DNA of 64,000 nt from an uncultured Ignavibacteria bacterium (GCA_963815785.1 CAWFHZ010000016.1:26275-90274), one strand, 5' to 3'; counted from the stretch's first letter, positions 433 through 26,048 are shown. Notes: a model not told the origin generated them from the letters alone. Made by a program: numbers and translations.

Positions 433-655
433 GCCTAACGGTGTTGCAACTAAAGCGGCGCCCAACAAATCCACGCCACCTTAGCCACAAACGCCAATAA
501 TTTTACAAATTGTATTTAACTTTCATCGTAAATACAATTTGTGATAATGTTATTTAGAACTAATCCCTTAAATAAAAATTTGAACGAAAATCATAAACTT
601 ACAATATTAAAAACGCTGCATCGATTATGCGGTCGCTTTGAGTTGCAGGTTAGGC
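433..655 (-). other. attC-like recombination site 1 (223 bp)
   Basis: GCCTAAC at 433-439 and GTTAGGC at 649-655. The arms gcctaacGGTGTtgcaactaaagcg and cgctttGagttgcaGgttaggc form an imperfect inverted repeat with a bulged base. A central 14-bp perfect hairpin lies at 505-518/529-542. Confidence 0.7.
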
Positions 656-658
656 AAT

Positions 659-1744
659 TTATTTTAGTAAAATAGATGAAACAAATCCTTGAACACCGGT
701 ACCAATATTTTGAATGCTCGTTCCATCCCATTTAAAAATACCGTTCACAGTTTTTCCATTAACAGTGGTAAATAAGCCTCCGACATACAAAAAGTCGCCG
801 GATGTATATAAGCTATTTGGCCAATTATCAAATGAGAACTTATTAAAATCCCAATCACTTCCGGTCCAAATTGCATAATATGGCAAATCATTTGAACCAT
901 TTGATTGACCCGCTAAATGGAGTTCATTTTTATACACTGTCGCCACATATATTCTGTTTGAAATGGCAGTACTATCGACCGATTGCCAAATACTGTTATT
1001 CCATTTTGCAATATTAGTAACCGTCACATTGCCACATTTACTAAAATTGCCAGTAGCGTATAACTCATTATTGAAAACCGTAAGTGTCATTATATAAGAA
1101 CCTGAATTAACCCCGCTTCCTACCGTATCCCAATTTACCCCATTCCATTTAGCGATATTATTTGCATTAAAATTTCCCGAATAGTTTATAGTAAACCAGC
1201 CGCCTGCATAAAGTTCATCATTATAAACACAAAGTGTATATACTTCATCTGAAAGTCCTTCACCAACTGAGGACCAATTTGTTCCATTCCATTTTGCAAT
1301 ATTATCAGCTTTAATGCCACCAGAGCTTGAAAACCAACCGCCAGCATAAAGTTCATCTTTATAAACTTTAAGGCTAGTTACTCTACCATTAATTCCACCA
1401 TCAACTGATGACCATTCTTTCCCATCCCACTTTGCAATATTTTTAGCTTCCTTCCCTCCAGCTGAATCAATGAATCCACCAACATACAATTCATTATTAT
1501 AGAAGGCCATACATTCTACATCTGCATTTTGCCCCGATATTCCGGTACTAAGTGCACTCCACTTACTTTCATTCCAAACAGCAATATTTTTTATAGATTG
1601 ATTGCCTGGTATGGTAAATCTACCACCAATGAAAAGTGAATCTGAAGGGGATGTGGTGTTCCCATCAATTATTTCAGTTGGAGCTTCTGATTTGCATCCG
1701 TAGAATATTATTGAAACTAAAAAAAGTAAATTTAATATTTTCAT
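659..1744 (-). CDS. cassette ORF: seven-bladed beta-propeller-like repeat lipoprotein
   Basis: Signal peptide with lipobox (LVSIIFYGC). About seven tandem repeats of about 47 aa carry the motif NIAKWNGxxWSxVGxG...VYNxELYAGGxF. The TAA stop lies 4 nt from the attC core. Confidence 0.75.
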   Translation of the reverse strand: MKILNLLFLVSIIFYGCKSEAPTEIIDGNTTSPSDSLFIGGRFTIPGNQSIKNIAVWNESKWSALSTGISGQNADVECMAFYNNELYVGGFIDSAGGKEAKNIAKWDGKEWSSVDGGINGRVTSLKVYKDELYAGGWFSSSGGIKADNIAKWNGTNWSSVGEGLSDEVYTLCVYNDELYAGGWFTINYSGNFNANNIAKWNGVNWDTVGSGVNSGSYIMTLTVFNNELYATGNFSKCGNVTVTNIAKWNNSIWQSVDSTAISNRIYVATVYKNELHLAGQSNGSNDLPYYAIWTGSDWDFNKFSFDNWPNSLYTSGDFLYVGGLFTTVNGKTVNGIFKWDGTSIQNIGTGVQGFVSSILLK

Positions 1745-1765
1745 AAATTACTCCCCATATTAGTT

Positions 1766-1992
1766 GCCTAACGATGTTGTGCCTAAGCTGCTGCCCAAAA
1801 CAACAATGCTGAACAAGAACACTACTGCAAATGATTTAGTAAACTGTGCTTAACTTTCTTCGCAAGCACAGTTTACAAGTTAATTAGTTAGAATGAACAC
1901 CTTTAACAAAAACCTTTTTACGGAACTACTGACTTAAAAATCTCAATAATGCCGAGTGCGAATTGGCAGTCAGCTTGAGGCACGGGTTAGGC
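1766..1992 (-). other. attC-like recombination site 2 (227 bp)
   Basis: GCCTAAC at 1766-1772 and GTTAGGC at 1986-1992. The arms gcctaacGATGTTgtgcctaagctgctgcc and ggcagTcagcttGaggcacGGgttaggc have the same bulge geometry as site 1 but different sequence. A central 13-bp hairpin lies at 1839-1851/1864-1876. Confidence 0.7.
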
Positions 1993-1993
1993 T

Positions 1994-4900
1994 TCAATTC
2001 TTCGCACCTTTTTTTAAATTACAATATTTATGACTTGCTTGTAAGTTTAAGAACCTATCTTTACCGCCAGGTCCTAGTGGTTTAATATGATCAATATGAA
2101 TTTCATCGTTAATTAGTAACTTATTCTCACAAATTGGACACAAACCATTTTGTAGCTTTATCAATTCAATTATTTCTTCTCTAGTCAAAGATATTTTTCT
2201 AATATCTTTTTGATATTTCTTCCGATATTCTAAAATCCTCTGATGAAATTGTTCGATTTGATAAGGATTTTCTTCTTTGCTTTTAACGTTTTTTATGCTC
2301 TCAAAAATATCTACCAAGTCTTTCTTTATGTTTGTACGATCACTTAGTACACGCGCTTGATTAATAAAATGAATTAGATACCAGAGTGTATAAAAATCTT
2401 GTAAGGTTCTTGAATACCATTTTTGATTTTTAACATTAAAAATTCGTGTTAATTCTTTAGCAAGGTATTCTGATTCAATATCTTGCTCTATTTCTTCATC
2501 GATTAAAATAGTTTTTAGCTTGCGGAGAAGTTGTTCTGTTGATTTAATGCTTTTTAGGAAATTTTGTTTTTCTTTTAAATCAATTGTTGCTGTATTTAAG
2601 ATTTTAGTAACATCAATTTTGCTCTTGACCCTTATATAAAGACCGGTTGATTTATGATGTATATCTAAGAATGGATAAAATTGATCCGAATCGAAATCAG
2701 TAAATTCATTTTTATATTCCAAGTAAGAAAATATAGTATACATTTCCTCATTTTTCATTCTAGTGTCATTTCGACTTTGTAGTAAGTAGAACCAATTATC
2801 AAATTTATTTACTAGAGACTTTATGTTGTCAATGATATCTTTATCAACGTATGAATTCCACATCTCAAAAGAATTTTCCTTTATTGGGTAGGGGCGATTG
2901 TTTAATCGAATAAATAAATCAACTGGGTTGAATTCAGGATTATATTTGCTGTCGATCATTATGAAAGATAGCGGGAAATCGTGAATTGCATCCTTTAGCT
3001 CTTCAGTTAGTTCGTCAAAAGTAAGGCCATTTAAATTCTCAAGAATTTTTAATTTAGTTAATCGAAAACCGGTTTTTTCAGATGTTACTCTATTACCTTT
3101 TTCATCAATAAATTCTTGGTTCATAAATCCTAAAATGGATAATATACGCTGTTGACCATCAATGATTTCATAAATTCCATCTTCACGTTGGAAAATAAAC
3201 ATTGGTGGTAACTTGATTCCTAAAAGTATGCTTTCAATTATTGCACTCGACTTTACCTTATTAATTACTTCCCCACGTTGATATACTGGGCGAACAAGAA
3301 ATTTTCTTCTCAACATCATCCGACAAATATCATTAATTGTCAACGGGAAAGGTTCCGGCTTATCAATACGTATGTTATCAAAACTGTCAAAGCTATATTC
3401 AACAGTACTCTCTTTATATGTTTTTATCTTCTTTCTAAATGATTGATTACTAGAAATATAAATATCGAAATTAACATTAAAGACCTTGCTGAAATAATCA
3501 GCAATTGTATTGTATCTTGTCATAAATTGACTATAAAGAAACTGACTTGAATCATCAATGAATGTTTCAGAATTTTTTCTAAAGAATTTAATTAATTCGG
3601 TTGTAAACCCGTTTGTAATCATTTTGGCAATATCTTTTTTTTCATTTTCAAGTATAGAAATTGCCCAATACAGAGTTTCATAAGCGTATCTAGTAATTTT
3701 TAAGTTGTTATTCTCGAATACTTCTTTTAGTTGCAATAGAATTTTCACTTTTTCAACGAAATTCTTAAATAGACTCATTGTATCAGTAATATTTTCAGAA
3801 AATCTATTATAGAAAACATCGAATATTTCTTTTTGCCGTGTCGTTGTTATTGGCATCTTTGTACAGATTAACAAAAATCTGATTTCTTGTAGCAATTTTT
3901 CGAGCGTTTCCTTTTTATCAAGTTTTTGTAAATCTGATTCAGCCGCGAATAAAGCTGTAATATTATGAAATAAGTTTTTATTCTTGGAAATGTGCTCTTT
4001 AAAATATTTTGTGGGCTCATCATTTATATAAATGGCTTTCTCAATTTCTACACGTTTTAAGGGTGTAATTCCAGAATTATATCTTCTAAATATTTCTTTT
4101 TTTAACATATCTATTGATTTTTCATCTAATCTTCTTTCATCAACCAAAGAAAATTTTATAATGCGTATTCTTGTTTCAATAAATAGTTCTTTTAATTTTT
4201 CCTCAAGTTCATCGAAAGTTTTTCTTTCCAAGAATTTTAATAAATACAAACCACTCTTATTTAATGAGAACTCATTTCTATGGAATCTTATTATTGTTTC
4301 TAATCTTTGTCGTCCGTCTATCACTTCCATTTTATTGTTTGATTCAAAAACAATTAATGGAGGGATTTCAGTGCCTATCAAAATGCTTTCAATGAAATAT
4401 GTACCCTTAACATTATCCCAAACATATCTTCGCTGATAGTAAGGTTCATAATTAATCTTATTGATGATGCGTGGAGAAAGAAGCGCATCAATTGTTTTGT
4501 CCCAAGTTTCAATTTTTAATAAATACCTAAAGATTTCTTGTATTTCTTTGTATTGTAAGAATAATTTTTCCTCAACCTCGTATGAGTAATCTGTTTCATC
4601 ATTCTCATCTAAAATTTTATTTTGACGATAGGATATAACTTGGTTATCCCGCGAACAAATTGGACATTTAGAATTTAAGTGAGTTCTATTAATTATTCGT
4701 GCCGGCCATTCATTAAGGCAATCTTTACATATCCACCAAACAATTTCATTACTTTTTGCTAAATAATCTTTGGGTGTATTTTTATTCTTTTTATAGTTCC
4801 ATTCTAAGGCAATTTCAGGATATAATGCAGCAACAGACAAGTTCTTTTCCATATTTTCTTTTGCGCATTCAGGGCATCCCATATCTGTTTCAGTCCTACT

Positions 4901-5293
4901 TCTAACAAAGGTATTCCATTCGTGCTTTGGGTTAGTCTTACATTGCCACCATACTCTTCTCACTCCTTTGGGTGCGACTTCATATGGGTTCAATCCTTCG
5001 TTTCGTGTTGGATGCCATTCTGCAAGTAGATTGGGATATAAGGCTGCAAGTGATTCGTCGGGATGAGTACGAAAGGTGGAACAATAAGGACATCCTTTAG
5101 TTTTTTTAGTACGATTGTATATAGTGGCTTCCCAAATATGTTTTGGATTTTTCTTGCATTTCCACCATACCTTTTTTGTTCCCCCCAAGCTAAGGGTATT
5201 TGGATCTAAATCACCATTCTTTTCATAAAACCATTCTTCTAATAATTCAGGATACTCTTTTGTAAATGGTGGTAATAATTTTCTTTTTGCCAT
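1994..5293 (-). CDS. cassette ORF: Zn-ribbon x3 / DUF262 (ParB-like nuclease, GmrSD N-terminal type) x2 / C-terminal HNH endonuclease
   Basis: Three N-terminal repeats have the form L..EW....N......VWWxC...HxWxxxxxxR.....CPxC. There are two DUF262 cores: YQRRYVW...VIDGRQRLETI, and YQRGEV...IIDGQQRILSIL followed by DLFIRLNNRPYPI. The C-terminus reads CPIC...HIDHIKP...HKYCNLKKG (HNH). The TGA stop lies 1 nt from the attC core. Confidence 0.8.
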   Translation of the reverse strand: MAKRKLLPPFTKEYPELLEEWFYEKNGDLDPNTLSLGGTKKVWWKCKKNPKHIWEATIYNRTKKTKGCPYCSTFRTHPDESLAALYPNLLAEWHPTRNEGLNPYEVAPKGVRRVWWQCKTNPKHEWNTFVRSRTETDMGCPECAKENMEKNLSVAALYPEIALEWNYKKNKNTPKDYLAKSNEIVWWICKDCLNEWPARIINRTHLNSKCPICSRDNQVISYRQNKILDENDETDYSYEVEEKLFLQYKEIQEIFRYLLKIETWDKTIDALLSPRIINKINYEPYYQRRYVWDNVKGTYFIESILIGTEIPPLIVFESNNKMEVIDGRQRLETIIRFHRNEFSLNKSGLYLLKFLERKTFDELEEKLKELFIETRIRIIKFSLVDERRLDEKSIDMLKKEIFRRYNSGITPLKRVEIEKAIYINDEPTKYFKEHISKNKNLFHNITALFAAESDLQKLDKKETLEKLLQEIRFLLICTKMPITTTRQKEIFDVFYNRFSENITDTMSLFKNFVEKVKILLQLKEVFENNNLKITRYAYETLYWAISILENEKKDIAKMITNGFTTELIKFFRKNSETFIDDSSQFLYSQFMTRYNTIADYFSKVFNVNFDIYISSNQSFRKKIKTYKESTVEYSFDSFDNIRIDKPEPFPLTINDICRMMLRRKFLVRPVYQRGEVINKVKSSAIIESILLGIKLPPMFIFQREDGIYEIIDGQQRILSILGFMNQEFIDEKGNRVTSEKTGFRLTKLKILENLNGLTFDELTEELKDAIHDFPLSFIMIDSKYNPEFNPVDLFIRLNNRPYPIKENSFEMWNSYVDKDIIDNIKSLVNKFDNWFYLLQSRNDTRMKNEEMYTIFSYLEYKNEFTDFDSDQFYPFLDIHHKSTGLYIRVKSKIDVTKILNTATIDLKEKQNFLKSIKSTEQLLRKLKTILIDEEIEQDIESEYLAKELTRIFNVKNQKWYSRTLQDFYTLWYLIHFINQARVLSDRTNIKKDLVDIFESIKNVKSKEENPYQIEQFHQRILEYRKKYQKDIRKISLTREEIIELIKLQNGLCPICENKLLINDEIHIDHIKPLGPGGKDRFLNLQASHKYCNLKKGAKN

Positions 5294-5315
5294 ATCTCAC
5301 TATTTCCTTTAAGAA

Positions 5316-5764
5316 GCCTAACGAAGTTGCCGATAAGCGGCGCCCCAGAACTATTTTATTAGCCTAATTATTGTACCATAGGCTAAAATATTTGAACCAA
5401 TAGAGTAACCAGAAGTAAAGTTTTCTTTATCAACTTTAATATGAATAATTCCATCACCCCCAGAATTAGATGCATTTTCCATTAGTTCTTTAATAAGATA
5501 ATCAAAAATATCAGTCATTTTTTCCGGTTTTTTTTGAACTAAAGTGCTAAAGAAAGCACTAGTAGTTCCAATTACTTCGTAATTTTCTTTAATATCCCCA
5601 GTGCTTGCAATTATGTCTTCCATTTTGACTCCATAAATATTAAGAAGGTTTTTATTTAATTTATTTATACACTGCTAAACTGCAATGTTTATTAATCTTA
5701 CTATACTTAAGAACTACTCAAATCCCGTTTATATTACGGCGTCCGCTTGATTGGCAGGTTATAT
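5316..5764 (-). other. attC-like site 3, with a 90-aa ORF inside its central region (449 bp)
   Basis: GCCTAAC at 5316-5322 and GTTATAT at 5758-5764. The arms taacGAAGTtgccgataagcggcgcc and ggcgTccgcttGattggcaGgtta pair with the same bulged C/A geometry as sites 1 and 2. About 390 nt, including ORF 5351..5623, separates the arms. Confidence 0.55.
5351..5623 (-). CDS. small YbjQ/UPF0145-like protein (tentative), embedded between the arms of attC-like site 3
   Basis: The 90-aa ORF follows the pattern I..T.....YEVIG...(n)...A...GGDGIIHIKVD...ILAYGTIIRL. This resembles the YbjQ-family layout (TT..i.GYE..G ... GAnAv ... yGTAV). The resemblance was judged by eye only. Confidence 0.4.
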   Translation of the reverse strand: MEDIIASTGDIKENYEVIGTTSAFFSTLVQKKPEKMTDIFDYLIKELMENASNSGGDGIIHIKVDKENFTSGYSIGSNILAYGTIIRLIK

Positions 5765-7039
5765 TTTTTTTACGAACTTCAAATAGTTAACAATACTTCT
5801 GTAGCATATTAATTCTATATCAATAAATGGATCTACATCATAAAGTGTTAAATATATTTCATACCCTTTCCAGTCTCTTAAACTGCTACTCCCGCCGTGT
5901 AGAATTTCATTTCTTAAATCGAAAAGTCTATCAGCTTTTTCATCTATCTTTTTATCAATATTTTTTAATGAACATAATCCATTTCTAATACTAGTTTCTA
6001 CATTGTTCTTTTCACCAAATAAAGCATCTAAAGCAATATAAAAGTGCATAAATCTTTCGATATCTGAAGAAGCAAGTAAGCCGTAATTTATAAACTGCGT
6101 AGCTGTCTCAAATCTTTTTTTTGATTCTGAGTTTAATCTATTGATGGATTTAATATAGGAATCAATTTCTTCCAGAGTTTCTATATCTACTTCAAGATGA
6201 GATGCAAAAGATGGCTGCAAAAATGGGAGTGAATTTATTTGTAGATTAAAATCTACAGTATCACTTCCGGGAAATAATATACAATATCTGGGCGTATCAT
6301 TTTCAATATAATTTTGTAAGGAATCATAAGAAGTAATTTTGAATGAACAAACAATGGCAATAAAATCTCTTACAGTAAATGTTAATTTTCTTCTGGCTCC
6401 TTTTTCAGTCCCATTTGTTTTGAATATTAACCAAGTCAAAGGAATATTGTATGCAGCAGGGATTATAGACCTATTGTAATTTTGTCCATTACTAGGATTG
6501 AAGCCGTTAGAAGATTTAAAATCACGACTTATCTTTTCCCAATTCATTGCATCAGATGGCGCTAATAATGCTAAATCTAAACTTTCAAAAATATAAGAGT
6601 TTGATTTTATTATGGTTAATGGAAATAAATTCATCCAATCAATTATTGATGACATTAGCTTATTCTCAATAATACAATATAATTTTTTTGATACATTTTT
6701 GTAATCTGAATTAATACTTACTTCCAACAAATTATCTGCTTCAGATTTAAAAACTAAATCAGAATTAAAAATATCTTTATTAAATCCATTATTTTGAATT
6801 GTATCTATAATTACTGTCGAGAAATATTCATAATCACCACCCAAAAACCTTTTGTCAGATGAAATAATCATTTTAGACAAATCATTTCGAAGCTTAAAGC
6901 TTTTTTTTGTGTACCACCACTGCAAACCAATATTACCAATTAAAAAACTTGTTGGGAAACAGTCATTATAACTCATTTTATGAAGTTTTATTTCACGTAA
7001 TAAAGCTAATATTTTACCATATATCTTTTCTTTACCCAA
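5759..7039 (-). CDS. cassette ORF: protein with a C-terminal HEPN-like domain (Rx4H motif)
   Basis: 426 aa with a TTG start. The C-terminal helical region FMHFYIALDALFGE ... DRLFDLRNEILHGG carries the R-x4-H HEPN signature (RNEILH). The N-terminal 300 aa is unrecognised. The TAA stop overlaps the GTTA of the attC core. Confidence 0.55.
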   Translation of the reverse strand: MGKEKIYGKILALLREIKLHKMSYNDCFPTSFLIGNIGLQWWYTKKSFKLRNDLSKMIISSDKRFLGGDYEYFSTVIIDTIQNNGFNKDIFNSDLVFKSEADNLLEVSINSDYKNVSKKLYCIIENKLMSSIIDWMNLFPLTIIKSNSYIFESLDLALLAPSDAMNWEKISRDFKSSNGFNPSNGQNYNRSIIPAAYNIPLTWLIFKTNGTEKGARRKLTFTVRDFIAIVCSFKITSYDSLQNYIENDTPRYCILFPGSDTVDFNLQINSLPFLQPSFASHLEVDIETLEEIDSYIKSINRLNSESKKRFETATQFINYGLLASSDIERFMHFYIALDALFGEKNNVETSIRNGLCSLKNIDKKIDEKADRLFDLRNEILHGGSSSLRDWKGYEIYLTLYDVDPFIDIELICYRSIVNYLKFVKKI

Positions 7040-8696: not shown

Positions 8697-8880
8697 TCCA
8701 GGTATGTCTTTGCCTTGTTGATCTGAAGCTTTGGGAGGATCTTTTATATTAGATTTCCAACTTTTCTGAGAACATCATCTTTAAGCTGAACATAAATCTG
8801 GTAGTTGAGATAAGAAGGCAGCGCCCCTCTCACAATAAAAAAGATTAATAAACTATTAGGGGAATAAATTCGGGCTGTAT

Positions 8881-8921
8881 GCCTGCCTGCCTTAGGCACG
8901 GCCTGCCTGCCGTAGGTACGG
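8881..8921. repeat. tandem 20-nt palindromic repeat (gcctgcctgccNtaggNacgg x2)
   Basis: Read directly: gcctgcctgccttaggcacg followed by gcctgcctgccgtaggtacgg. Related cctgcc...ggcagg palindromes occur at 57120-57142, 57268-57288 and 63913-63935. Confidence 0.7.
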
Positions 8922-9873
8922 TTATTACCATAACACTATAAACCAAGCCGTACTTGTCCCGAAGGTATAGCCAACATCATTGCGGGGAAAACTTAGTTGG
9001 TGTTTCTAATCGTTTTACATTTAGCTCATTCATTCATCAGCACAATTCCATTTTTTTTATTACCCCATCTACTTGATAGCTCCACTTCGTTCCGCTATCA
9101 AGCTATTCCACTTAATCACAAAGCTAACCCTCGCTTCTTTATTCAATCGCTAAAAGTACGTTTGCTGTAAAAATTTCATAAAATATTATTTTCAATAAAA
9201 TCATTTCATATCAGTTCAATCAGTTAAATCTGCGTCCTATTATCTCTTAACTTTTTTAATTCAATATTTACTTACCGCAAACTTCAAATCGTTTCTGCAG
9301 GACCTGTCCGCCTCTGGCGGAAAAGTTTTTATGCGCTTGTTTTATTATCCGGCATTCGCCGTATCCAGCCCTCATTTATCTTAGGGCATTAGAATTTCAA
9401 AGCATCAATTTATTTCCGTTGCTCCTGCTGCTTCACTTCGCCGGGTCTGGTCGCCCCGGCTCGCTCTTTGCACTTAAGCCCTCACTTATTCACGATGTCC
9501 TAAGCTCGTTCTTAAGCCGTCGCAACTTTCATTATACTAATTTTATTGTTTTTTGTACGTAATTGTACGGATGTATAACCCCAATTGATGAATTATATTA
9601 TGATCGGATATGGGTTTATTTGGGTGTAATGATTCCTGATTTATTATACTTTTTATTCTCCCTTTATTAAGATTTTTCCACCCCCTCGGGTCGCGAAAAC
9701 GCGCATAGATGCCCTTGCGTATGCAGGGGTATCTGTTTATTTACGGTCAATAATTACACTTTAATTAGTAGTTATTACGGTTGTCACATATTTTTAATAA
9801 AAATATTTAACATTTTCTTAGGTATAATTATTGATTTAATTAATAATTCTTCAACCCAAAAGGAGTATCTCTT

Positions 9874-11445: not shown

Positions 11446-12528
11446 TCACGTAAGATTATACCTCTTCTTAAAATATTCCTTACTGAAATTCACTCCCATA
11501 TCAGTAAGTACTTTATCCCGTTCAGCACTATGGTCAACAACAGCTTCCTTCTTATTCAGCTTTACTCTCGGCGCATCAATCTTTCCGTAATTAAGTTCAG
11601 TATAATATCTCAGTAATTCATTCAGCGCTCTCTCTACAAGCTTCTTATCGGTAATGCCTAAATAGTTAAGCATCTCTTTGTGTATCTCCGCAGCTTTATA
11701 TGAACCGCTCTTTTGTGTTTCTGTTGTCAGTGTAACAGTAAGTACAGCTTTGGATATTTCCGCATTATGAAAACCAACCAGGTTCTGGTATAACCCGCCC
11801 ACATCGTAGCTCGGTGATTCTTTTATCTCTATTTCTTTGCCTTCTTCAAATACACTTATCGTATCCTGCACCATCTGCTCAAGATCTTCCAGCAGTTGTG
11901 CTTTTTCTGCAGGTGTTGCACCGGTAGCATATCTGCCAATAAGATACGGCATTCCAAACCTCTCCATCATTAACTGCCAGTACTCAATCCCTGCTCTCTT
12001 AAAAGTTACAGGCCAGTAGCATCTGCTTAATACTTTCTCTCCGTAAGGATTAACATAAGTCGGCTGGTATTGTGTTACTATAAATTTATAGTCAGGAAGC
12101 TTTTCACCTTCTTCAAAAAGATAATTGCCGTATCTCATTTTTCTTAGTCTTAATTTATTTTCTTTGTCGTAGATAAACCATTCCTGCGGTTTGCCTATAA
12201 TATTAACCGGTACAATCTCACTCCCGTCAAGTTTCCAGTCAATCTCACCGACAGAAAAACCAAACAGCACTGCATCAAGTACATTGTTCATTATCTCCCC
12301 AAGCGGCATCATTCTAAGTATATCAATGGTGCGGTTCTTTATCTTTTCGTCCTGTTCATAATCAACTTCCCATCCCATCTGCATTACCTGCATTTTCCTT
12401 TGCTGTATAGCAGCAATCAAATGAGCATCACTCAGTAAATCCCTCAGTATACTGAAGTCATAATTATTTTCAGCGAGTATCTTGTCCGGGTCAGGCAGTG
12501 AAGTATAAAGATGTTCATAAACCTGCAT
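11446..12528 (-). CDS. phage portal protein, Mu gp29-like (DUF935), probably N-terminally truncated
   Basis: 360 aa. The motif FHNAEISKAVLTVTLTTETQKSGSYKAAEIHKE resembles the conserved DUF935 portal core. Portals of this family are usually longer. 350 nt of noncoding junk lies upstream. Confidence 0.65.
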   Translation of the reverse strand: MQVYEHLYTSLPDPDKILAENNYDFSILRDLLSDAHLIAAIQQRKMQVMQMGWEVDYEQDEKIKNRTIDILRMMPLGEIMNNVLDAVLFGFSVGEIDWKLDGSEIVPVNIIGKPQEWFIYDKENKLRLRKMRYGNYLFEEGEKLPDYKFIVTQYQPTYVNPYGEKVLSRCYWPVTFKRAGIEYWQLMMERFGMPYLIGRYATGATPAEKAQLLEDLEQMVQDTISVFEEGKEIEIKESPSYDVGGLYQNLVGFHNAEISKAVLTVTLTTETQKSGSYKAAEIHKEMLNYLGITDKKLVERALNELLRYYTELNYGKIDAPRVKLNKKEAVVDHSAERDKVLTDMGVNFSKEYFKKRYNLT

Positions 12529-12877
12529 TTTATCGCGTGTTGCAAAATCACTTAAAAGTCTGTTTCTTATAATTTTTTTTCATTTCTCTATTCCGCTTTT
12601 GGTTTTATCCGTTTTAACTTGTTTCTTAGTTCCTTTATGATACCTTATAGTAGCCTTCTAAAAGAGGTTTGAGGTTTATAAGGATGGTGAGTAATTTGCC
12701 TTGCGCTCTAAAATTACTGCCATCCTTCCTTTTTATCTCTGATTTATTTCCTCTTTGCCTGCTGAAGGTTGCCTACTGCATACTCATTATTGCCTACTTG
12801 CCCTATATTTCCTGTACTTGCTTCTAAATTGTTTCCTCGGTAAATGAATCACAGGTTCATTACTTATTATTCTTTTT

Positions 12878-14129
12878 TCATCTTTCGCATAGTTCAGAAA
12901 TTGAGCTCATACTATCCACCGCATCGTCAAATTCACCATCGGGAAATTCTTCGCATTCATCAATAAAATCTTTTACCCACACTTCACCTTCAGGCAGATA
13001 AACTTTCCCCGCTTCAATCAGTGGAGTAACAGAATGCACCCTCGCTATTTTATCTGTATCAACTTTAATAGCTTTAATCGGTATTCTGCTTCCTCTTTTC
13101 ATTTCCTGTATAAGTGATTGCCCGCTTGCTTTATCCTCAACAAGCACTTCATTCGGATTATAAAGCTTATATAATTCTTTGCATTTCTTTTTTAGTTCAG
13201 GAAACTCAACTCTGTCTTTCCAGAGATTAACCAGGTAAAATCCATCGGGTGTAATAAACCACGTAGTACAAACCGAAAAATCATTTCCTTCTTTATCCTT
13301 AAAAGCAGTATCCCAGCTTTGTATTTTTTTAAGTATTCTTTTTTGTGTTATGTATTCAGGATTATAATATCTCCACCATTCACTTTTTATTATTCCGCTT
13401 GTTTCTTTATCAACAAACTTTCCAAATACTTCCTGGTCTCTTAATGCAGGAGAAATTTCTTTTACAAGTTCATCAATCTCATTCTTATCAATCAAAGGAT
13501 TATCGTAGGATGAAAAATTAAAACTCTCCCATTGCGATTTTCATCCCCTCCACTGGAGGGGTCCGGCTTTAGCCGGGGGTGGGTTTATCTGCACTTTGAC
13601 CTCTCTCAAACAGTTCATAGAACAGGTGCTTCTCCCTCTTCCCTTTAACATTCTTACCCTTCGGAGTTCCGCCTATCAGTACATCTGCCTTATAATCCAG
13701 TATCATTGGTCTTATAGATTCATTCCAAAGACTTCTGTTCTTAAGCACAATACCGGCTTCATTTATAATAATAAGCGCATAACCAAATCCCTCAATATTC
13801 TCAGGTCTGTCCGCACTTCGGAAATCGCATACAGAACTCATTATCTTAAGATCATTCCTGTTGCTTCTGTACTTCCATAAGTTTTTAGGTAATTGTTTTA
13901 GCGTAGGAGTAAAATATCTCTCAACATATCTGTCTATGTTCCCGTATATGGTATCAACCCAAAGCACCGGCGAAACTCCATCCATCATCTGATCAATAAC
14001 ATAATTTGCAAATCCTCTCGTCAGCCCGAAACGTCTTCCTTTGGCAATTACCTTATATCTGGCTTTGCTCTCAAAAAATATCTTCTGCTGATTTTTATGG
14101 TAAGTAATATCTAAGCTGATTTCTTTCAT
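12878..14129 (-). pseudogene. phage terminase large subunit, split by a palindromic element insertion
   Basis: The N-terminal ATPase fragment is 13569..14129 (KGRRFGLTRG, LIIINEAG). The C-terminal nuclease fragment is 12878..13540 (WESFNFSSYDNP..., DTAFKDKEGNDFSV, VEDKASGQSL, EFPDGEFDDAVDSMS). The two fragments are in different frames and are separated by the element at 13544-13584, which supplies an in-frame TAA. Confidence 0.8.
13544..13584. repeat. GC-rich double-hairpin element (tcccctccactggagggg tccggctttagccgg gggtgggt) inserted in the terminase gene
   Basis: Palindromes cccctcc/ggagggg and ccggc/gccgg stand out in otherwise AT-rich coding sequence. A related copy lies at 49789-49822. 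Confidence 0.75.
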
Positions 14130-14476
14130 TTAACAGTCTTCCGGGTAATCTTAATATCATATTCTCCCGTCTCGTCTATCTTTTCAGCTTGTCCCAGGTA
14201 TTGCTTTCCTAACCAGATCAGCATAACTACATTTCCCTGCATAGCAACGGAAATCTGTTTCTTCTTTAACCGTTCTCTAAGGTTAGCTTTCCCTTTTATG
14301 ATATTTTTCTCAAAGTTCCGTTTCAGTGTGCTGTCATCATAACCAAGTGCTTCAGCAATTTCTTTATTGGTTAATCCGTATGAAGCCAGTTTTTCTATTT
14401 TCTGTTCTTCTGTTAATTCAACTTTTTTCTTCGGTGGCTTTTTCATAAGTGGCGTTTTCCTTCCAAAATCAAACAA
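14126..14476 (-). CDS. phage terminase small subunit-like HTH protein
   Basis: 116 aa with an HTH (LTNKEIAEALGYDDSTLKRNF). It lies immediately upstream of the large terminase and overlaps it. Confidence 0.6.
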   Translation of the reverse strand: MFDFGRKTPLMKKPPKKKVELTEEQKIEKLASYGLTNKEIAEALGYDDSTLKRNFEKNIIKGKANLRERLKKKQISVAMQGNVVMLIWLGKQYLGQAEKIDETGEYDIKITRKTVK

Positions 14477-14605
14477 TCGATATAGATAAAATCTATTATA
14501 TTTTAAATATAATAAATTCTATTGATATTTATTAGGCAAAATGTTATATTTAATTAAGTTTTTTAGGCTATGATATACGATTTGTTAATAAAGTAAGGAT
14601 ATTCG

Positions 14606-15621
14606 ATGATGAATGAATTTGAAATTTTTAAGGCAGGGACTCATACTTCAAGTAATGGAACCACTAAAGACTATTCCATAAAAGACTTGGAGTTTATCGC
14701 CTCTTCTTATAATCCCGCAGAAAATGAAGCTCCTATTGTAATCGGTCACCCCGTAGATAATTCACCTGCTTACGGATGGATTGAATCTCTTAAGGTTGCA
14801 GGCGACAACTTCTTGCAAAACCTAAGGAAGTTATCAAGGAGTTTTCTGAAGCAGTTAAAAAAGGATTATATAAAAAACGAAGTATCTCTCTTGATAAAGA
14901 TGGAAAGTTAAGACACGTAGGTTTTCTTGGCGGTGCCGCTCCCGCTGTAAAAGGTTTAGCTGATATTCAGTTTAACGAACCTTCAGCAGTTACTTTTGAA
15001 CTTGATATTGAGGGGCTTAAAGAAAACGCAAAAGATGAACAGGTTATAGATAAAATTGATAACACTTCGGACAAGGATATCAAAGAACCGGTAACAGATG
15101 ATAAGCCCCCTCTTTTTTCTGAACAGTTAAACCAGATACGCGATAATCTTATTGAGCTTAATAAAAAGTTTGTAAGCACTCCTGATAAAACTAATACTTC
15201 TGATATTTCTAAAATCCAGTCTGCTGTTGATGAACTAAGCTTCAAGATTAACTTCTCTGAGTTTGAACCAATGCTTAATGATAAATTATCTTCCGGTTCT
15301 CTTACTCCCGCAATGAAGAAATCTGTAATGAGTCTCTTCGAATATCTCAACACTCAGAACTTCTCTGCTGAATATGATTACTCAAAATTCAGGAATGATG
15401 TTAAGAAGCTTCTTACTGATTTTGTTGAGTCGGTTCCAAAGATAGTCTATTATGAAAACTTTGCGGAGAAACCCGATGAACCTGATAATGATAGTAATAG
15501 TTTTTCCGGCTATACGCTTGATGAGGAGTCTGCTGCACTTCACAAAAAAGCTAAAACAATAATGAGGAAAGATAATATCTCCTACGAAGCAGCAGTAATG
15601 AAATTGTCTAAATTAAATTAA
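14606..15621 (+). pseudogene. phage scaffold/prohead-protease-like protein with one frameshift (about 14800-14815)
   Basis: The first frame gives FKAGTHTSSNGTTKDYS..APIVIGHPVDNSPAYGWIESLKV. After a -1 shift the reading continues KPKEVIKEFSEAVKKGLYKKRSISL..RHVGFLGGAAPAVKGL... and joins track ORF 15271..15621 with no further stop. Confidence 0.65.
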
Positions 15622-15633
15622 GGAAATGATACG

Positions 15634-16557
15634 ATGGGTACACTTTCAAACAAACGTGTGGTAGATCCTGTTCTTACTAACATAGCACGTGGCTATAACA
15701 ACGCCGCTCTTATCGGCACAATGCTTTTCCCGGTTGTCTCGGTTGATAAGGAAGGCGGTAAGATTCCTCAGTTTACCAAGGAAGCTTTTAAGATTTATAA
15801 TACTGAACGCGCAATCCGTGCTAAGTCCAACAGGATTTCACCGGAAGGTCGCACTTCAGTTGATTTCGTTCTTGATGAACACGATCTTGAATATCCTATG
15901 GATTACAGGGAGATTGATGAGGATGTTACTCCCTTAAAGATTTATGCTACTCAGGTTGTCACTGATGGTATAGGTCTAAGACTTGAAAAACTCATAGCTG
16001 ATTTGTCGCAGAACTTGTCAACTTATCCCTCAGGTAATAAAGTAACTCTCTCTGCAAGTGATCAGTTCTCAAATGCTTCTTCCGATCCATTCGTAATATT
16101 TGATACAGCTAAGGAAGCAGTAAGAGGTAAGATTGCAAAACGTCCCAATGTTTGTGTACTTGGTGCGCAGTCTTATAAAGCATTAAAGAACCATCCTGCA
16201 GTGCTTGATAGAATTAAATACACTCAGCACGCAGTGATAACTCCGGAACTTCTCAGAAATCTCTTAGACTTTGAACAGCTTTTTGTAGGTGATGCAGTAA
16301 GCGCAGATGACACAGGCACTTTCTCTGATATATGGTCTGATAATGCTGTTGTTGCCTATGTTCCTAAAGCTAAAACTGATTTGCCCCGTTCCTACTTCGA
16401 GCCTGCTTTTGCATATACACTCAGGAAGAAAGATAATCCTTTGGTTGATGTATATGATGAGAATGGAAAAGTCCAGGTTGTACGTAATACTGATATATTC
16501 ATTCCTAAAGTTGTCGGTGCAGAAGCAGGTTATTTAATCAACGATACTAATGCATAA
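15634..16557 (+). CDS. phage major capsid protein (lambda gpE-like family)
   Basis: 307 aa and intact. It sits after the scaffold gene. The N-terminal DPVLTNIARGY...LFPVVSV..GKIP.F and C-terminal AGYLI patterns are typical of gpE-like capsid proteins. Confidence 0.65.
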   Translation: MGTLSNKRVVDPVLTNIARGYNNAALIGTMLFPVVSVDKEGGKIPQFTKEAFKIYNTERAIRAKSNRISPEGRTSVDFVLDEHDLEYPMDYREIDEDVTPLKIYATQVVTDGIGLRLEKLIADLSQNLSTYPSGNKVTLSASDQFSNASSDPFVIFDTAKEAVRGKIAKRPNVCVLGAQSYKALKNHPAVLDRIKYTQHAVITPELLRNLLDFEQLFVGDAVSADDTGTFSDIWSDNAVVAYVPKAKTDLPRSYFEPAFAYTLRKKDNPLVDVYDENGKVQVVRNTDIFIPKVVGAEAGYLINDTNA

Positions 16558-16568
16558 GGTAAGGATAG

Positions 16569-16841
16569 ATGAAATACAAACTAATCAACACAGATTTAAT
16601 CTATAAAGGTACTCTTTATTCTGAAGGCTGCATTCTCGAAATCGATTCTAAAGATGCAGACTCAATCTCAGAGTATCTCAAACCTATTGAGAGTCATTCT
16701 GAATCTTCCCAGGTCAGTCATCCTGAACGAGTCATCCTGGACTTGTTTCAGGATCTCTCGGATAGTCATCCTTATACCGATTTATCAGTTAAATCTCCAA
16801 AACAAAAAAATTCAAAAAGCAATAAAGGAAAGAAACGATGA
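16569..16841 (+). CDS. small phage protein carrying an in-frame palindromic-repeat insertion
   Basis: 90 aa. Residues about 42-68 (HSESSQVSHPERVILDLFQDLSDSHP) are encoded by GTCATYCTGA-type repeat units at 16693-16771. Its ATGA overlaps the next gene. Confidence 0.45.
   Translation: MKYKLINTDLIYKGTLYSEGCILEIDSKDADSISEYLKPIESHSESSQVSHPERVILDLFQDLSDSHPYTDLSVKSPKQKNSKSNKGKKR
16693..16771. repeat. three abutting GTCAT(T/C)CTGA... repeat units inside a coding frame
   Basis: Sequence gtcattctgaatcttcccaggtca gtcatcctgaacga gtcatcctggacttgtttcaggatctc ggata gtcatcc. The third unit closely matches the intergenic copy at 10486-10512. Confidence 0.7.
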
Positions 16842-17170
16842 AAACCGAACAGCCGATTTTAATAACCTCAATAACTGCAACAGCAGATTTATCCGCAAAG
16901 CAAAATCTTTTTATTGGTTTTGATGGTGCGGTCTGCGGTAACGGTGTAAAACCTCTCGGTTCACTTAACGCAAATGCTGATTTAGATGAGCAGGCTCCCG
17001 TTACCTGTACAGGTATAGCACTTGTTTATTCAGGCGATACTATTTTAAAAGGTGATAAGCTCCAGAGCAATGCAGCAGGTAAAGCAATCCCTTATTCTTC
17101 CGGTGATATTGCAGGCTATGCATTGGACGCAGCCACCGGAGCAGATGAACTAATCAGGGTTCTTCTTTAA
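16838..17170 (+). CDS. DUF2190-type capsid decoration/cement protein
   Basis: 110 aa. The pattern G..V.V..TG.ALVYSGD.I.KGD.L.S...GKA.P......AGYALDAA.GADELIRVLL is characteristic of DUF2190. Confidence 0.7.
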   Translation: MKTEQPILITSITATADLSAKQNLFIGFDGAVCGNGVKPLGSLNANADLDEQAPVTCTGIALVYSGDTILKGDKLQSNAAGKAIPYSSGDIAGYALDAATGADELIRVLL

Positions 17171-17229
17171 TTATTAAACAGGAAATTTATTTTGTCTTAC
17201 ATAACATTCACAGTCGGCTTTGATTCAGA

Positions 17230-17448
17230 TTGATCAAGCTTACTCAGACACAGATAGATTCTGTAAAGGCTTATATGTATGAGTATTGCAGTGTTGGTGC
17301 ATTCACAGATGACTTTAATCCTATCTTAAATGGTAAGTATAATTTTTACTGCTATGCAGTCGATAGCGGTCCTGATTTCTTCAAATTCTGGGTAGCAAAA
17401 GGATGGGCAAGCCCGTACAAAAAAGGAAAAGAAATAATAAAGGAATAA
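17230..17448 (+). CDS. small phage protein (TTG start)
   Basis: 72-aa ORF in the head-gene series. No family recognised. Confidence 0.4.
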   Translation: MIKLTQTQIDSVKAYMYEYCSVGAFTDDFNPILNGKYNFYCYAVDSGPDFFKFWVAKGWASPYKKGKEIIKE

Positions 17449-17452
17449 TAAT

Positions 17453-17695
17453 TTGGCTCAGGTATTTTTTGAATTTCGGTTCGAGTCTGATGGAGTAACT
17501 ACTGCTCAGGATGTTGCTGATGCAAAAGTTATGTTAAAGCAATGGATAGAAAAGAAACTGTTCCAGGTCTCGGTTAACAATGGATTACAGGTAGAAGAAA
17601 ATCTTAATATCCAGCTGATAACCTGCGATGATGATACTGCTGATTTTGAAGTTGTGGACGGATGGGCTGAACCATCTTTACGCCACATTGGTTAA
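17453..17695 (+). CDS. small phage protein (TTG start)
   Basis: 80-aa acidic ORF in the head-gene series. No family recognised. Confidence 0.4.
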   Translation: MAQVFFEFRFESDGVTTAQDVADAKVMLKQWIEKKLFQVSVNNGLQVEENLNIQLITCDDDTADFEVVDGWAEPSLRHIG

Positions 17696-17730
17696 ATAAA
17701 TAAGTTCAATATGTAATATGCGGAGATACG

Positions 17731-18417
17731 ATGATAAAATATTTTTTGTTAATTCTTATGCTTGATATTTCTTTCCACAAAGTCCTATTCACAGTGGTGG
17801 ACTAGTGGTGGTAATCTTATATGGCCTTACGGCAAAGTCTCAATAACCAAATCACCATTAGAAGTAGATACAGTTGCATCAGTTAATGGTAATTTAACTT
17901 TAACAGATCAGGGAAGAAATTCAAAACTAAATCTTTCCTCATCTCATATAAGTCTTTCAGGCTGATTCAAATTTCATAGATAACGGAAGTTTATATTTAT
18001 CTCCTAATACTGATATATGGTTATCTAATCAGGCATCACATAACTTTACAATTTATCAATATGATTGGGGTCAGGTATTCCAGTACATCTATCCGGCAAA
18101 ACTGCAATTCTGGAATAGTGATATGAATGGTACTTATTGGGTTTTAGATGACAATACATCCACATCTACTTTTCATGGTACTTATGTTTTCATTAATACC
18201 AATAAGTTTAGATAATCAGCAATGAACCTGGCTGGTCTTCATTTATATTCAATGAAGGTGATTCACCTGGTGAAAGCAGTATTTATATGGATGCGGATAC
18301 TTTAACCCTGCATTCAGATAAAATTGCATTACCAACAATTCCTTCGGATAGCTCCGGCTTGCAAACAGGTATGCTGTATTTTGATTCTTCAACAGGCGCA
18401 ATAAAACGTAAATTCTG
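17731..18417 (+). pseudogene. secreted fibre-like protein broken by at least three frameshifts
   Basis: Fragments in three frames: MIKYFLLILML (signal peptide); SQWWTSGGNLIWPYGKVSIT...; ADSNFIDNGSLYLSPNTDIWLSNQ...; SNEPGWSSFIFNEGDSPGESSIYMDADTLTLHSDKIALPTIPSDSSGLQTGMLYFDSSTGAIKRKF. Confidence 0.55.
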
Positions 18418-19709: not shown

Positions 19710-19896
19710 TTTTATAAAAGTTATGCAAATCATTAATTCAAATAATTTATTAATAACAAAAAATAGTTTGGTTAAGAGAGTATCTTTCCTCAAGTCCCTA
19801 CTTTACTCCCTACTCAGTCCCTACTCTGACAGTGGGATTTCAAAATCCTTTAAAACTAAAAAAGCCCCAAAACAATCTGTTTTAAGGCTTTTCTTG

Positions 19897-19969
19897 AGCT
19901 GGCAATGGGACTCGAACCCGCAACCTGCTGATTACAAATCAGCTGCTCTACCAATTGAGCTATGCCAGC
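19897..19969 (-). tRNA. tRNA-Thr (anticodon UGU)
   Basis: The reverse complement is gctggca ta gctc aattggta gagc a gctga ttTGTaa tcagc aggtt gcggg ttcgagt cccat tgccagc t. This is a cloverleaf with 7-bp acceptor, D, anticodon and T arms. There is one C.A mismatch in the T stem, and CCA is not encoded. Confidence 0.85.
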
Positions 19970-24984: not shown

Positions 24985-26048
24985 AAACTTCGGACATTCC
25001 CGGAATTCGCTTAACCTCTCAACATATTTCTTCAAAAAAATATAAAACTGTAAAAGACCTCATAAATTATTTGGGTGCGATCCAGGCACAGGATTATTTA
25101 ATGTCCAGGTGGGCAATTGGGGTTAGATTAGAAAATTCTTCAGAAAAAATAATAAATGATGCAATAGACAAAGGCGAAATACTCAGGACACATTTACTGC
25201 GTCCTACGTGGCATTTCGTTTCTTCAGAAAATATATACTGGATGCTTGAACTTACAGCATCAAGAATTAAGAATTCTATGAGTTCAAGAAATAGGGAGTT
25301 AGATCTTACCAGGGAAGTGTTTAGGAAAAGTAATAGAATTATATATAATGTTTTAAAAGGAAATAATTATTTAACCAGAGAAGAACTTATTTTAATCTTA
25401 AATAAAGCAAAAATTAAGACCGATAAAAACAGGGCTTCACATCTTTTGGCTGAAGCAGAACTTTGCGGAATAATATGCAGCGGAAAAACCAAAGGGAACA
25501 AGCATACTTATGCATTGCTTGAAGAGAGAGTTTCGACGTCAGAAGTATATGAGAGAGAAAAATCACTTTCAAAACTAGCACTTATTTATTTCCAAAGTCG
25601 TGGACCTGCGACACTAAAAGACTTTTCGTGGTGGTCGGGATTAAATCTTACTGAATCGGGATTAGCACTTGAATTGATTAAATCAGAATTAATTTCTTTT
25701 AAGAATGATTCACAAACGTACTGGTTTTCAGATCGTGCAAAAGAAAATACAAATCAAAAAAATAAAATTTATCTGCTGCCTGCTTTCGATGAATACTTAA
25801 TCAGTTATACCAATAGATCAGCGGTTTTGATTTCTGAAGAACATAAATCCATGGTATCTACGAATGGGTTGTTTCGTCCCATAATAGTTTTTGATGGAAA
25901 AATAATCGGAACATGGAAACGAACTTTAAAAAGAGATAAAGTATCTGTCCAGTTTGAATATTTTAAGAACCCAAGTAAGAAAGTGGATCAATTAGTTAAA
26001 AAAGAAACCGAAAATTTAGGCAGATTTTTAGGAAAGAAACTCTCTTAA
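24981..26048 (+). CDS. winged-helix AlkZ/YcaQ-like protein (DNA crosslink-repair glycosylase family)
   Basis: Motifs seen: LGAIQAQDYLMSRWAIGVRL, LLRPTWHFV, LLPAFDEYLISY and FDGKIIGTWKR. These are typical of the YcaQ/AlkZ family. Its ATGA overlaps the kinase stop. Confidence 0.7.
   Translation: MKTSDIPGIRLTSQHISSKKYKTVKDLINYLGAIQAQDYLMSRWAIGVRLENSSEKIINDAIDKGEILRTHLLRPTWHFVSSENIYWMLELTASRIKNSMSSRNRELDLTREVFRKSNRIIYNVLKGNNYLTREELILILNKAKIKTDKNRASHLLAEAELCGIICSGKTKGNKHTYALLEERVSTSEVYEREKSLSKLALIYFQSRGPATLKDFSWWSGLNLTESGLALELIKSELISFKNDSQTYWFSDRAKENTNQKNKIYLLPAFDEYLISYTNRSAVLISEEHKSMVSTNGLFRPIIVFDGKIIGTWKRTLKRDKVSVQFEYFKNPSKKVDQLVKKETENLGRFLGKKLS

Follow-up and report, generated by a model that had tools for sequence, protein, structure and literature searches.

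We describe here a 1099-amino-acid (aa) protein encoded on the minus strand, at positions 1994..5293, of a 64,000-nucleotide (nt) stretch of DNA from an uncultured Ignavibacteria bacterium (GCA_963815785.1 CAWFHZ010000016.1:26275-90274), hereafter called the window. The protein joins three DUF4379 zinc ribbons, two DUF262 modules and an HNH nuclease domain in a single chain and, judged by its sequence, it is clearly an uncharacterised variant within the well-studied DUF262 anti-phage nuclease superfamily, not a new kind of system. By analogy with the characterised members of this defence superfamily of ParB-like NTPases (NTP, nucleoside triphosphate), it probably acts as an NTP-gated, GmrSD-like single-chain DNA endonuclease. 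Its mode of dissemination is more directly visible: several observations strongly support that the gene is carried as a 3550-bp integron cassette bounded by attC sites (5321..1772).

Domain architecture and conservation

The open reading frame (ORF) begins with ATG and ends with a stop codon at 1994-1996. Compared as a whole with Pfam, the protein matches DUF4379 in three stretches (E-value (E) 1.9e-49), GmrSD_N/DUF262 in two (E 1.3e-22) and the HNH family PF01844 (E 2e-10). Domain boundaries were taken from Pfam scans carried out segment by segment, in which every match exceeded the gathering score, and give the following layout:

5078..5245 (aa 17-72), minus strand: DUF4379 treble-clef zinc ribbon 1 (Pfam PF14311, E 1.7e-21)
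4859..5029 (aa 89-145), minus strand: DUF4379 zinc ribbon 2 (Pfam, E 1.3e-17; sequence match in the PDB to 6sga_Fd, a DUF4379 protein)
4649..4813 (aa 161-215), minus strand: DUF4379 zinc ribbon 3, with CxxC...CxxC ligands (Pfam, E 8.4e-16)
3380..4522 (aa 258-638), minus strand: NsnA-like module 1, a DUF262 core followed by a helical ParBDB-like domain
aa 278-422, minus strand: DUF262 core of module 1 (ParB-like NTPase), with QRRYVW, DGRQR and FRRYN (Pfam GmrSD_N, E 6.9e-19)
2507..3346 (aa 650-929, helices continuing to about aa 1030), minus strand: NsnA-like module 2, a DUF262 core followed by a helical domain
aa 663-803, minus strand: DUF262 core of module 2, with QRGEVI, DGQQR and FIRLN (Pfam GmrSD_N, E 3.1e-10)
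2003..2140 (aa 1052-1097), minus strand: C-terminal HNH (beta-beta-alpha-metal) nuclease domain, CPIC...DH...N...HKYCN (Pfam PF01844, E 5.6e-12)

A preliminary description made from the sequence had already proposed the triple zinc ribbon, the two DUF262 domains and the HNH domain. Pfam recovers all of them, and the motifs quoted there are all present in the translation (VIDGRQRLETI at aa 324-334, IIDGQQRILSIL at aa 710-721, HIDHIKP at aa 1066-1072 and HKYCNLKKG at aa 1088-1096). It had also pointed out that DUF262 normally pairs with DUF1524; here the Pfam scan found no match to DUF1524 (PF07510) at E<=0.1 in the whole protein or in its C-terminal segment.

The two DUF262 cores are paralogous and align at 39% identity over 100 aa (E 1e-15). 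Among the models of the PADLOC database, that of NsnA matches the whole protein with an E of 3e-54, and it also matches each module taken separately: aa 258-638 at E 3e-28, covering model positions 43-375 of 385, and aa 650-929 at E 1.3e-29, covering positions 50-321 of 385. NsnA consists of a ParB-DUF262 domain followed by a helical DNA-binding domain called ParBDB (Li et al., PMC12065111). In the terms of that work, the predicted layout of our protein is [3 x DUF4379]-[ParB-DUF262+ParBDB]-[ParB-DUF262+ParBDB]-[HNH]. Its HNH domain resembles the PtuB-type HNH of Septu systems in PADLOC, and the zinc ribbons have no PADLOC match.

The predicted active residues are strongly conserved in an alignment of 64 relatives, in which both DGxQR motifs (VIDGRQR and IIDGQQR) are invariant. 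The invariant positions comprise Q287, R288, W292, D326, G327, Q329, R330, F402 and N406 in module 1, Q672, R673, D712, G713, Q714, Q715, R716 and N798 in module 2, and C1052, D1068, H1069, N1083, H1088 and N1092 in the HNH domain, where C1055 and C1091 are conserved in at least 90% of the sequences. The HNH domain also carries a DHxxP-type motif (IDHIKP). An AlphaFold2 model built from the same alignment has a mean predicted local distance difference test score (pLDDT) of 80 and a predicted template modelling score (pTM) of 0.38, so that the individual domains are reliable and their mutual arrangement is not. In this model, the linkers at aa 225-246 and 622-647 are disordered, and the HNH region forms a strand-strand-helix at aa 1065-1095. 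Sequence and model thus agree in predicting an HNH domain with the expected fold, catalytic histidine, structural asparagine, metal-binding residue and zinc ligands. Foldseek searches against the PDB matched BrxU (7p9k_A) over 596 aligned columns (E 1.5e-3) as well as the CTPase domains of ParB, Noc and KorB. The HNH domain matched the Gme HNH nickase (4h9d) and the HNH domains of Cas9, and zinc ribbon 1 matched DUF4379 proteins of trypanosomal mitoribosome assembly intermediates.

Proposed activity and comparison with known systems

In GmrSD, BrxU and SspE, DUF262 acts as a sensor that binds and hydrolyses NTP; jointly with the DNA-binding helical domain that follows, it activates the His-Me nuclease at the C-terminus (PMC10952713, PMC12065111, PMC4619093). 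BrxU and SspE are homodimers. TgvAB requires two different DUF262 proteins, with the DGQQR motifs of both, plus the nuclease (bioRxiv 10.1101/2024.04.04.588119). By extension, the two DUF262 units of our protein would form an intramolecular pseudo-heterodimer, the single-chain equivalent of the BrxU and SspE homodimers and of the TgvA+TgvB pair. The helical domains would bind DNA, and NTP binding and hydrolysis would serve as a switch. Once foreign DNA is recognised, most likely modified phage DNA as in GmrSD, BrxU and TgvAB, this switch would license the single HNH domain to nick or cut. Dependence on DNA modification specifically is a more tentative proposal, to which we give somewhat less than an even chance. 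The zinc-ribbon array might be an extra module for nucleic-acid binding or sensing, comparable to the variable sensor domains at the N-terminus of type II Menshen NsnA proteins (PMC12065111).

Several points weigh against this mechanism. The defence, or type IV, function is one that we infer from homology, and PADLOC-DB v2 (2023) yields domain-level matches only, with no model for the whole architecture. The nuclease domain is a PF01844 HNH, whereas every characterised GmrSD-type enzyme has DUF1524. With one HNH per chain, the protein can only nick unless it dimerises. Motif I of module 2 has lost its tryptophan throughout the family (QRGEVI), so the two modules, conserved as they are, are not equivalent, and their putative packing as a pseudo-dimer is unsupported at a pTM of 0.38. 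Finally, many relatives lie amid housekeeping genes and not in recognisable defence islands.

The nature of the nuclease domain also bears on a different reading, that of a toxic nuclease acting by abortive infection, in which the DUF262 modules and zinc ribbons would sense a phage protein or a replication intermediate and the HNH domain would degrade DNA indiscriminately, that of the host included, halting the infected cell. An HNH of the same Pfam type is the effector in Septu PtuB, the toxicity of the DUF262 protein EF_B0059 to E. coli does not require DNA methylation (PMC11322646), and several integron-borne systems work by growth arrest or lysis (bioRxiv 10.1101/2024.07.02.601686). However, the characterised enzymes that combine DUF262 with a His-Me nuclease (GmrSD, BrxU, TgvAB) act directly on phage DNA, and our protein has no recognisable protein-sensing domain. 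We therefore consider indiscriminate host killing improbable, and direct, NTP-gated cleavage of foreign DNA remains the preferred reading.

Among described systems, the closest functional analogue appears to be TgvAB, the two-protein GmrSD-like type IV system of Vibrio cholerae VPI-2, a likeness drawn from its description. In each case a DGxQR motif is found in both of two DUF262 units, the second of which bears the only His-Me finger nuclease, and the order DUF262, then DUF262-nuclease, matches that of a TgvA-TgvB fusion. TgvAB requires its nuclease as well as the motifs of both DUF262 units (bioRxiv 10.1101/2024.04.04.588119, 10.1101/2024.04.05.588314). By contrast, TgvAB is a two-gene operon with DUF1524, often in a type I restriction-modification (R-M) cluster, whereas here we find one polypeptide, a PF01844 HNH, three extra N-terminal zinc ribbons and no type I R-M operon, hsd genes being absent from all seven contexts examined. 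The GmrSD family is defined by an N-terminal DUF262 of ParB/Srx fold with an (I/V)DGQQR motif and a C-terminal DUF1524 (PF07510) His-Me finger (Machnicka et al. 2015, PMC4619093), and its cleavage is NTP-stimulated and depends on DNA modification by glucosylated hydroxymethylcytosine (glc-hmC), hydroxymethylcytosine (hmC) or 5-methylcytosine (5mC) (PMC4619093). The DUF262 domain of this definition occurs twice in our protein (aa 278-422 and 663-803), and its DUF1524 domain does not occur. With the single-chain type IV enzymes GmrSD, BrxU and HEC-06, the protein shares a single gene, an N-terminal ParB-like DUF262 NTPase with DGQQR, a helical middle part and a C-terminal His-Me nuclease with a DHxxP-type motif. 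It differs from them by the tandem duplication of the DUF262 and helical unit and by the lack of DUF1524; moreover, those enzymes form homodimers, whereas two non-identical units are found here in one chain.

Menshen offers a further likeness, as each half of the 1099-aa protein covers nearly the whole NsnA model. Nevertheless, the HNH effector is fused here and the NsnA-like unit is doubled, and no NsnB ABC ATPase or NsnC-like effector gene lies beside any HNH-bearing homologue in the contexts examined. Membership in Menshen was rejected on the absence of these two genes. McrA-type modification-dependent endonucleases (EcoKMcrA, ScoMcrA, VcaM4I) are also single-gene enzymes with a C-terminal PF01844-type HNH placed after domains that read DNA or its modification; these readers are SRA, EVE/PUA or SBD domains, not NTP-driven DUF262 units.

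Among modification-sensing restriction enzymes, DUF262 nucleases such as GmrSD, BrxU, SspE and TgvAB form a major class. A natural protein that combines one HNH domain with two DUF262 units, conserved but not identical, in the same chain would be a tractable model of the TgvAB heterodimer, of the unexplained requirement for two DUF262 units and of the coupling between NTPase and nuclease, the more so as family members occur in experimentally easy genera, e.g. Bacillus and Clostridium.

Family distribution and genomic contexts

A word-indexed search recovered 1380 relatives at E<=1e-5. The full architecture is shared by more than 30 listed full-length proteins of roughly 1075-1208 aa, with identities of 41-86%, in Ignavibacteria (Stygiobacter, 75%), Planctomycetota, Nitrospiraceae and Bacteroidetes. 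A much larger set of proteins of ~850-870 aa (typically ~855) has the arrangement DUF262-DUF262-HNH without zinc ribbons; it is found in Bacillus subtilis, Priestia, Clostridioides difficile, Clostridium perfringens, C. botulinum and cyanobacteria, under the generic annotations 'DUF262 domain-containing', 'HNH endonuclease family' or 'GmrSD restriction endonuclease domain-containing'. When 1.84 billion representatives were searched exhaustively by HMMER with aa 247-1099 as the query, 187 clusters (50% identity) were retrieved at E<=1e-30. Scanning one genome per species gave 225 loci, distributed over Bacillota, Cyanobacteriota, Bacteroidota, Chloroflexota, Ignavibacteriota, Nitrospirota, Planctomycetota and a few archaeal metagenome-assembled genomes (MAGs). 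Neighbour-joining analysis of the core region groups the zinc-ribbon forms into a single clade, within which two apparently N-truncated sequences are nested; this is compatible with the ribbon array having been acquired once. The view of the architecture as non-standard thus holds for the triple zinc-ribbon addition, which is specific to this clade, and not for the double-DUF262 and HNH core, which is widespread. As to whether it had already been named, full-text literature searches on DUF262 with HNH, on tandem or double DUF262 and on DUF4379 found no description of it, and the matches in PADLOC-DB v2 are at domain level.

The tandem-DUF262 chassis also occurs with other ends, as seen among the HMMER matches P0153, P0170, P0144, P0161 and P0171. 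One variant (~775 aa) has no C-terminal domain; another (~1000 aa) has an extra C-terminus of ~230 aa with weak similarity, below threshold, to the TaqI_C specificity domain, which resembles a target recognition domain (TRD) (E 2.3e-4); a third (1017 aa) combines HNH with Schlafen/AlbA_2; and a fourth (971 aa) bears an N-terminal extension of ~120 aa. This variety is compatible with a more ambitious reading, in which the proteins built on the tandem-DUF262 chassis would be ParB-like NTP switches, 'pseudo-dimeric' within a single chain, and would form a modular family of their own, distinct from GmrSD and Menshen, with interchangeable outputs and inputs. The two non-equivalent NTP sites would close on DNA like a ParB clamp and license cleavage, and the zinc-ribbon clade would be a version specialised as an unusually large, phylum-crossing integron cassette. 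The interchangeable ends would be HNH, the weak TaqI_C/TRD-like domain, HNH with Schlafen/AlbA_2, none at all, and the N-terminal zinc-ribbon arrays; for these, as for the modular family itself, we think such a scheme conceivable, though rather unlikely. Short HMMER matches that could have represented a natural two-gene split at the module boundary begin and end at scattered positions and look like contig-truncated fragments, and this candidate was rejected. The zinc-ribbon array used alone as a query retrieved mostly proteins made only of DUF4379 repeats and a few DUF559/Vsr-like fusions, which says little about the role that the ribbons may play.

Across seven unrelated neighbourhoods of the family, no neighbour gene is conserved. 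In Stygiobacter the gene lies between a purE fragment and a cation-efflux gene, in B. subtilis it is flanked by SDR and DUF3219 genes close to queCDEF, and in one Ignavibacteria genome BrnT/BrnA are nearby; the remaining contexts are among metabolic genes. Since no partner gene is conserved, this is a single-gene system. A single example hints that nuclease-free versions work with partners: the HNH-less relative P0171 (locus L014) is in an apparent operon, directly after a gene for a 487-aa protein of unknown function and near an AAA_15/AAA_21 ATPase.

These contexts bear on two readings that would require a separate modification system. The first is an SspE-like effector that reads a host DNA mark such as phosphorothioate and nicks unmarked invaders. 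SspE is itself a DUF262 nuclease that works in this way (PMC9646914, PMC10952713), and the PADLOC SspE model gives a weak match (E 0.002, 25 residues). This match is negligible, however, and in the contexts examined the gene has no dnd, ssp or methyltransferase neighbour. The protein does not fit the definition of SspE (DUF262 and DUF1524, linked to sspABCD). In addition, the gene moves alone as a cassette between integrons of distant phyla, which is ill-fitting for a host-specific mark. The second reading is a sequence-specific type II-like restriction endonuclease needing a cognate methyltransferase, in favour of which are the match of the PADLOC 'REase_II' model to the DUF262 cores (1.4e-15) and the sister proteins in which, on the same chassis, a weak TaqI_C-like specificity domain (E 2.3e-4) replaces HNH. 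But the REase_II match is confined to the DUF262 core, a methyltransferase is neither in the cassette nor conserved nearby, and an unprotected sequence-specific nuclease would kill its new host after cassette transfer. Both readings are unlikely because no modification genes are present: we give the SspE-like one very little credence and the type II-like one hardly any.

The location of many copies outside defence islands might instead point to a non-immune, selfish or maintenance function, either as a homing-type HNH endonuclease or as a ParB-like protein that handles DNA and so keeps the cassette array stable or helps it to spread. HNH domains are indeed common in homing endonucleases, and ParB-fold proteins act in partition. 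Yet the gene is not in an intron, an intein or a phage, and searches of phage and plasmid collections yielded matches to single domains and, on a Priestia plasmid, one partial match, but no copy of full length. It is IntI, and not the cargo, that moves integron cassettes; the family is scattered unevenly over phyla and occupies variable positions, as defence genes do; and every characterised protein combining DUF262 with a nuclease is a defence protein. A selfish function is accordingly very improbable, and a role in defence, through NTP-gated DNA cleavage, is still the reading that we prefer.

The integron cassette and its surroundings

The sites and cassettes recognised in and around the nuclease gene are as follows:

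1766..1992, minus strand: attC of the nuclease cassette, 227 nt (repeat family D3; DNA fold z -3.25; arm duplex -27.5 kcal/mol)
433..1744, minus strand: next cassette downstream, a 361-aa ORF (659-1744) with a 223-nt attC (433-655)
5316..5351, minus strand: L'-R' arm of the upstream attC, with GTTAGGC at 5322-5316, where the block of homology with locus L005 ends
5735..5762, minus strand: R''-L'' arm of the upstream attC, which pairs with the 5316-5351 arm

The R'' box of the nuclease cassette (GCCTAAC) directly follows the stop codon of the nuclease gene, its R' box (GTTAGGC, a core of the GTTRRRY type) lies at 1772-1766 on the minus strand, and the L'' arm pairs with an L' arm ~190 nt further downstream, leaving two extrahelical bases. 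A strict attC scan of the 64 kb found two sites, 1766-1992 and 433-655. The evidence for attC sites is limited to this strict scan, homology to known attCs and reading by eye; a relaxed scan (NNNNAAC...GTTNNNN plus arm duplex energy) gave 73 matches in 995 kb over all loci, equivalent to background, and was dropped as evidence. Among ten long-type attC copies (from the window and loci L004 and L005), the arms covary, with the compensatory pairs AAGCTG/CAGCTT, AAAGCG/CGCTTT, AACCCG/CGGGTT and AAGCGG/CCGCTT. Both arms of the upstream attC are closely similar to the L004 attC arms (96% and 94% identity). The window and L005 are 98.8% identical over 434-5322, a block with a GTTAGGC core at both ends, and the cassettes beyond this block differ between the two on both sides.

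The integrase evidence comes from outside the window. A tblastn search of the 64 kb with IntI found no integron integrase, so the window array is a cluster of attC sites without integrase. In L004, by contrast, a 79%-identical nuclease homologue with its attC stands divergently beside a gene for a 318-aa integrase, which scores 429.5 bits against the integron-integrase model TIGR02249 (cut-off 265). In L018, from a Georgfuchsia MAG, a 44%-identical homologue is the first gene after an IntI homologue (45.6% identical) and is followed by a classical 69-nt attC (GCCCAAC...GTTAGGT). The same cassette (91.8% identical) occurs in L017 after a different attC, the homology beginning at a GTTGGGC box, and in L015 (Melioribacter) an attC directly follows the stop codon of the nuclease homologue. 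Cassette-borne copies are thus found in the window, L004, L005, L015, L017 and L018, two of them (L004 and L018) first after intI; at least six of about thirteen zinc-ribbon contexts are cassettes, with two very different attC types. The location in an integron cassette, which the preliminary description had suggested, is in this way strongly supported by attC sites, by homology blocks that end at R' cores and by intI beside homologous cassettes.

Integron-borne anti-phage cassettes have been described (bioRxiv 10.1101/2024.07.02.601686), and ours resembles them in having a single-gene putative defence function and attC boundaries. Darracq et al. (bioRxiv 10.1101/2024.07.02.601686) report, however, that defence systems are smaller in integrons than outside them, whereas the cassette-borne clade studied here is ~240 aa larger than its ~855-aa non-cassette relatives, in a cassette of 3.55 kb. 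As the zinc-ribbon clade shows, a single-gene nuclease cassette of 3.4-3.6 kb can be carried and exchanged by integrons whose attC sites are of very different types, and such large cassettes run counter to the reported trend.

The attC sites of Ignavibacteriota type are unusually long (about 190-230 nt) and have a conserved central region with its own hairpin (repeat D6, in which 486-540 resembles 1820-1874). Other long sites of this type are:

L004, 11292-11517
L005, 13301-13527
L005, 14638-14860
L005, 16124-16346
L005, 18153-18360
L015, 7318-7506

In the upstream attC (5316-5762) the arms are ~445 nt apart and enclose a 90-aa ORF (5351-5623), which therefore appears to lie inside the central loop of the site. 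A promoter and terminator scan of the cassette region gave counts no better than those of shuffled sequence. In the nearly identical nuclease copy of L005 (10001-13219; ENA ERZ25039495 contig_43388), one nucleotide is missing from GATCAT, exactly where the HNH domain has its catalytic Asp-His codons, and the resulting frameshift truncates the protein at 1072 aa. The gene may truly be inactivated, or long-read base calling may have erred at a methylated GATC site. A ParA-like gene (14884-15747) is present in the same L005 array, together with a classical R-M cassette (16473-18013) composed of an MT-A70 methylase, a MunI-family restriction enzyme and a helix-turn-helix (HTH) controller-like gene.

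PADLOC found no matches among the neighbours of the nuclease gene in the window. Directly upstream is the 90-aa ORF, with a match to YbjQ_1 (E 2e-4) that is below threshold. One ORF beyond it, in a separate cassette, lies the following gene:

5759..7039, minus strand: upstream-cassette ORF of 426 aa, with an invariant C-terminal LRNExLHGG (Rx4H) motif

The preliminary description had taken this gene for an adjacent HEPN neighbour. The protein has only 18 homologues. HEPN proteins are recognised by a four-helix fold with a conserved Rx4-6H motif; the Rx4H motif here (R376 and H381) is indeed invariant, and a HEPN-like nature is plausible. Pfam and PADLOC gave no match, the PDB sequence search with a profile was empty, and HEPN_MAE_28990 was matched weakly (E 0.029) in one of 16 homologues. 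An AlphaFold2 model (pLDDT 90) had no significant Foldseek match, HEPN entries appearing only at E 1.4-2.5. The gene is, moreover, not immediately adjacent and, because separate cassettes are independent units, it says little about the function of the nuclease.

On the downstream side, the 361-aa ORF (659-1744, minus strand) resembles a lipoprotein-like beta-propeller, with weak matches to DUF5122 and Kelch; it contains internal DNA repeats of ~138-144 nt and is a large cassette too. This cassette travels with the nuclease cassette in L005. Further along the window, a tandem 20-nt repeat in two copies (8881-8920; GCCTGCCTGCCTTAGGCACG) loosely resembles part of an attC arm (1965-1984); it lies within a ~1.2-kb stretch (8700-9870) that has no Rfam match and lacks long ORFs. 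The remnant of a Mu-like prophage (11446-16557), a few kb away from the attC array, comprises an E-type major capsid protein, a Mu-type portal (E 2e-90) and the C-terminal domain of a terminase large subunit; tRNA-Thr is encoded at 19896-19969. Finally, the interval 22411-26048 encodes a TPR-containing Ser/Thr kinase of 857 aa and, immediately after it, an AlkZ-like DNA glycosylase (E 5e-52); a 2025 preprint reports antiviral roles for diverse DNA glycosylases.

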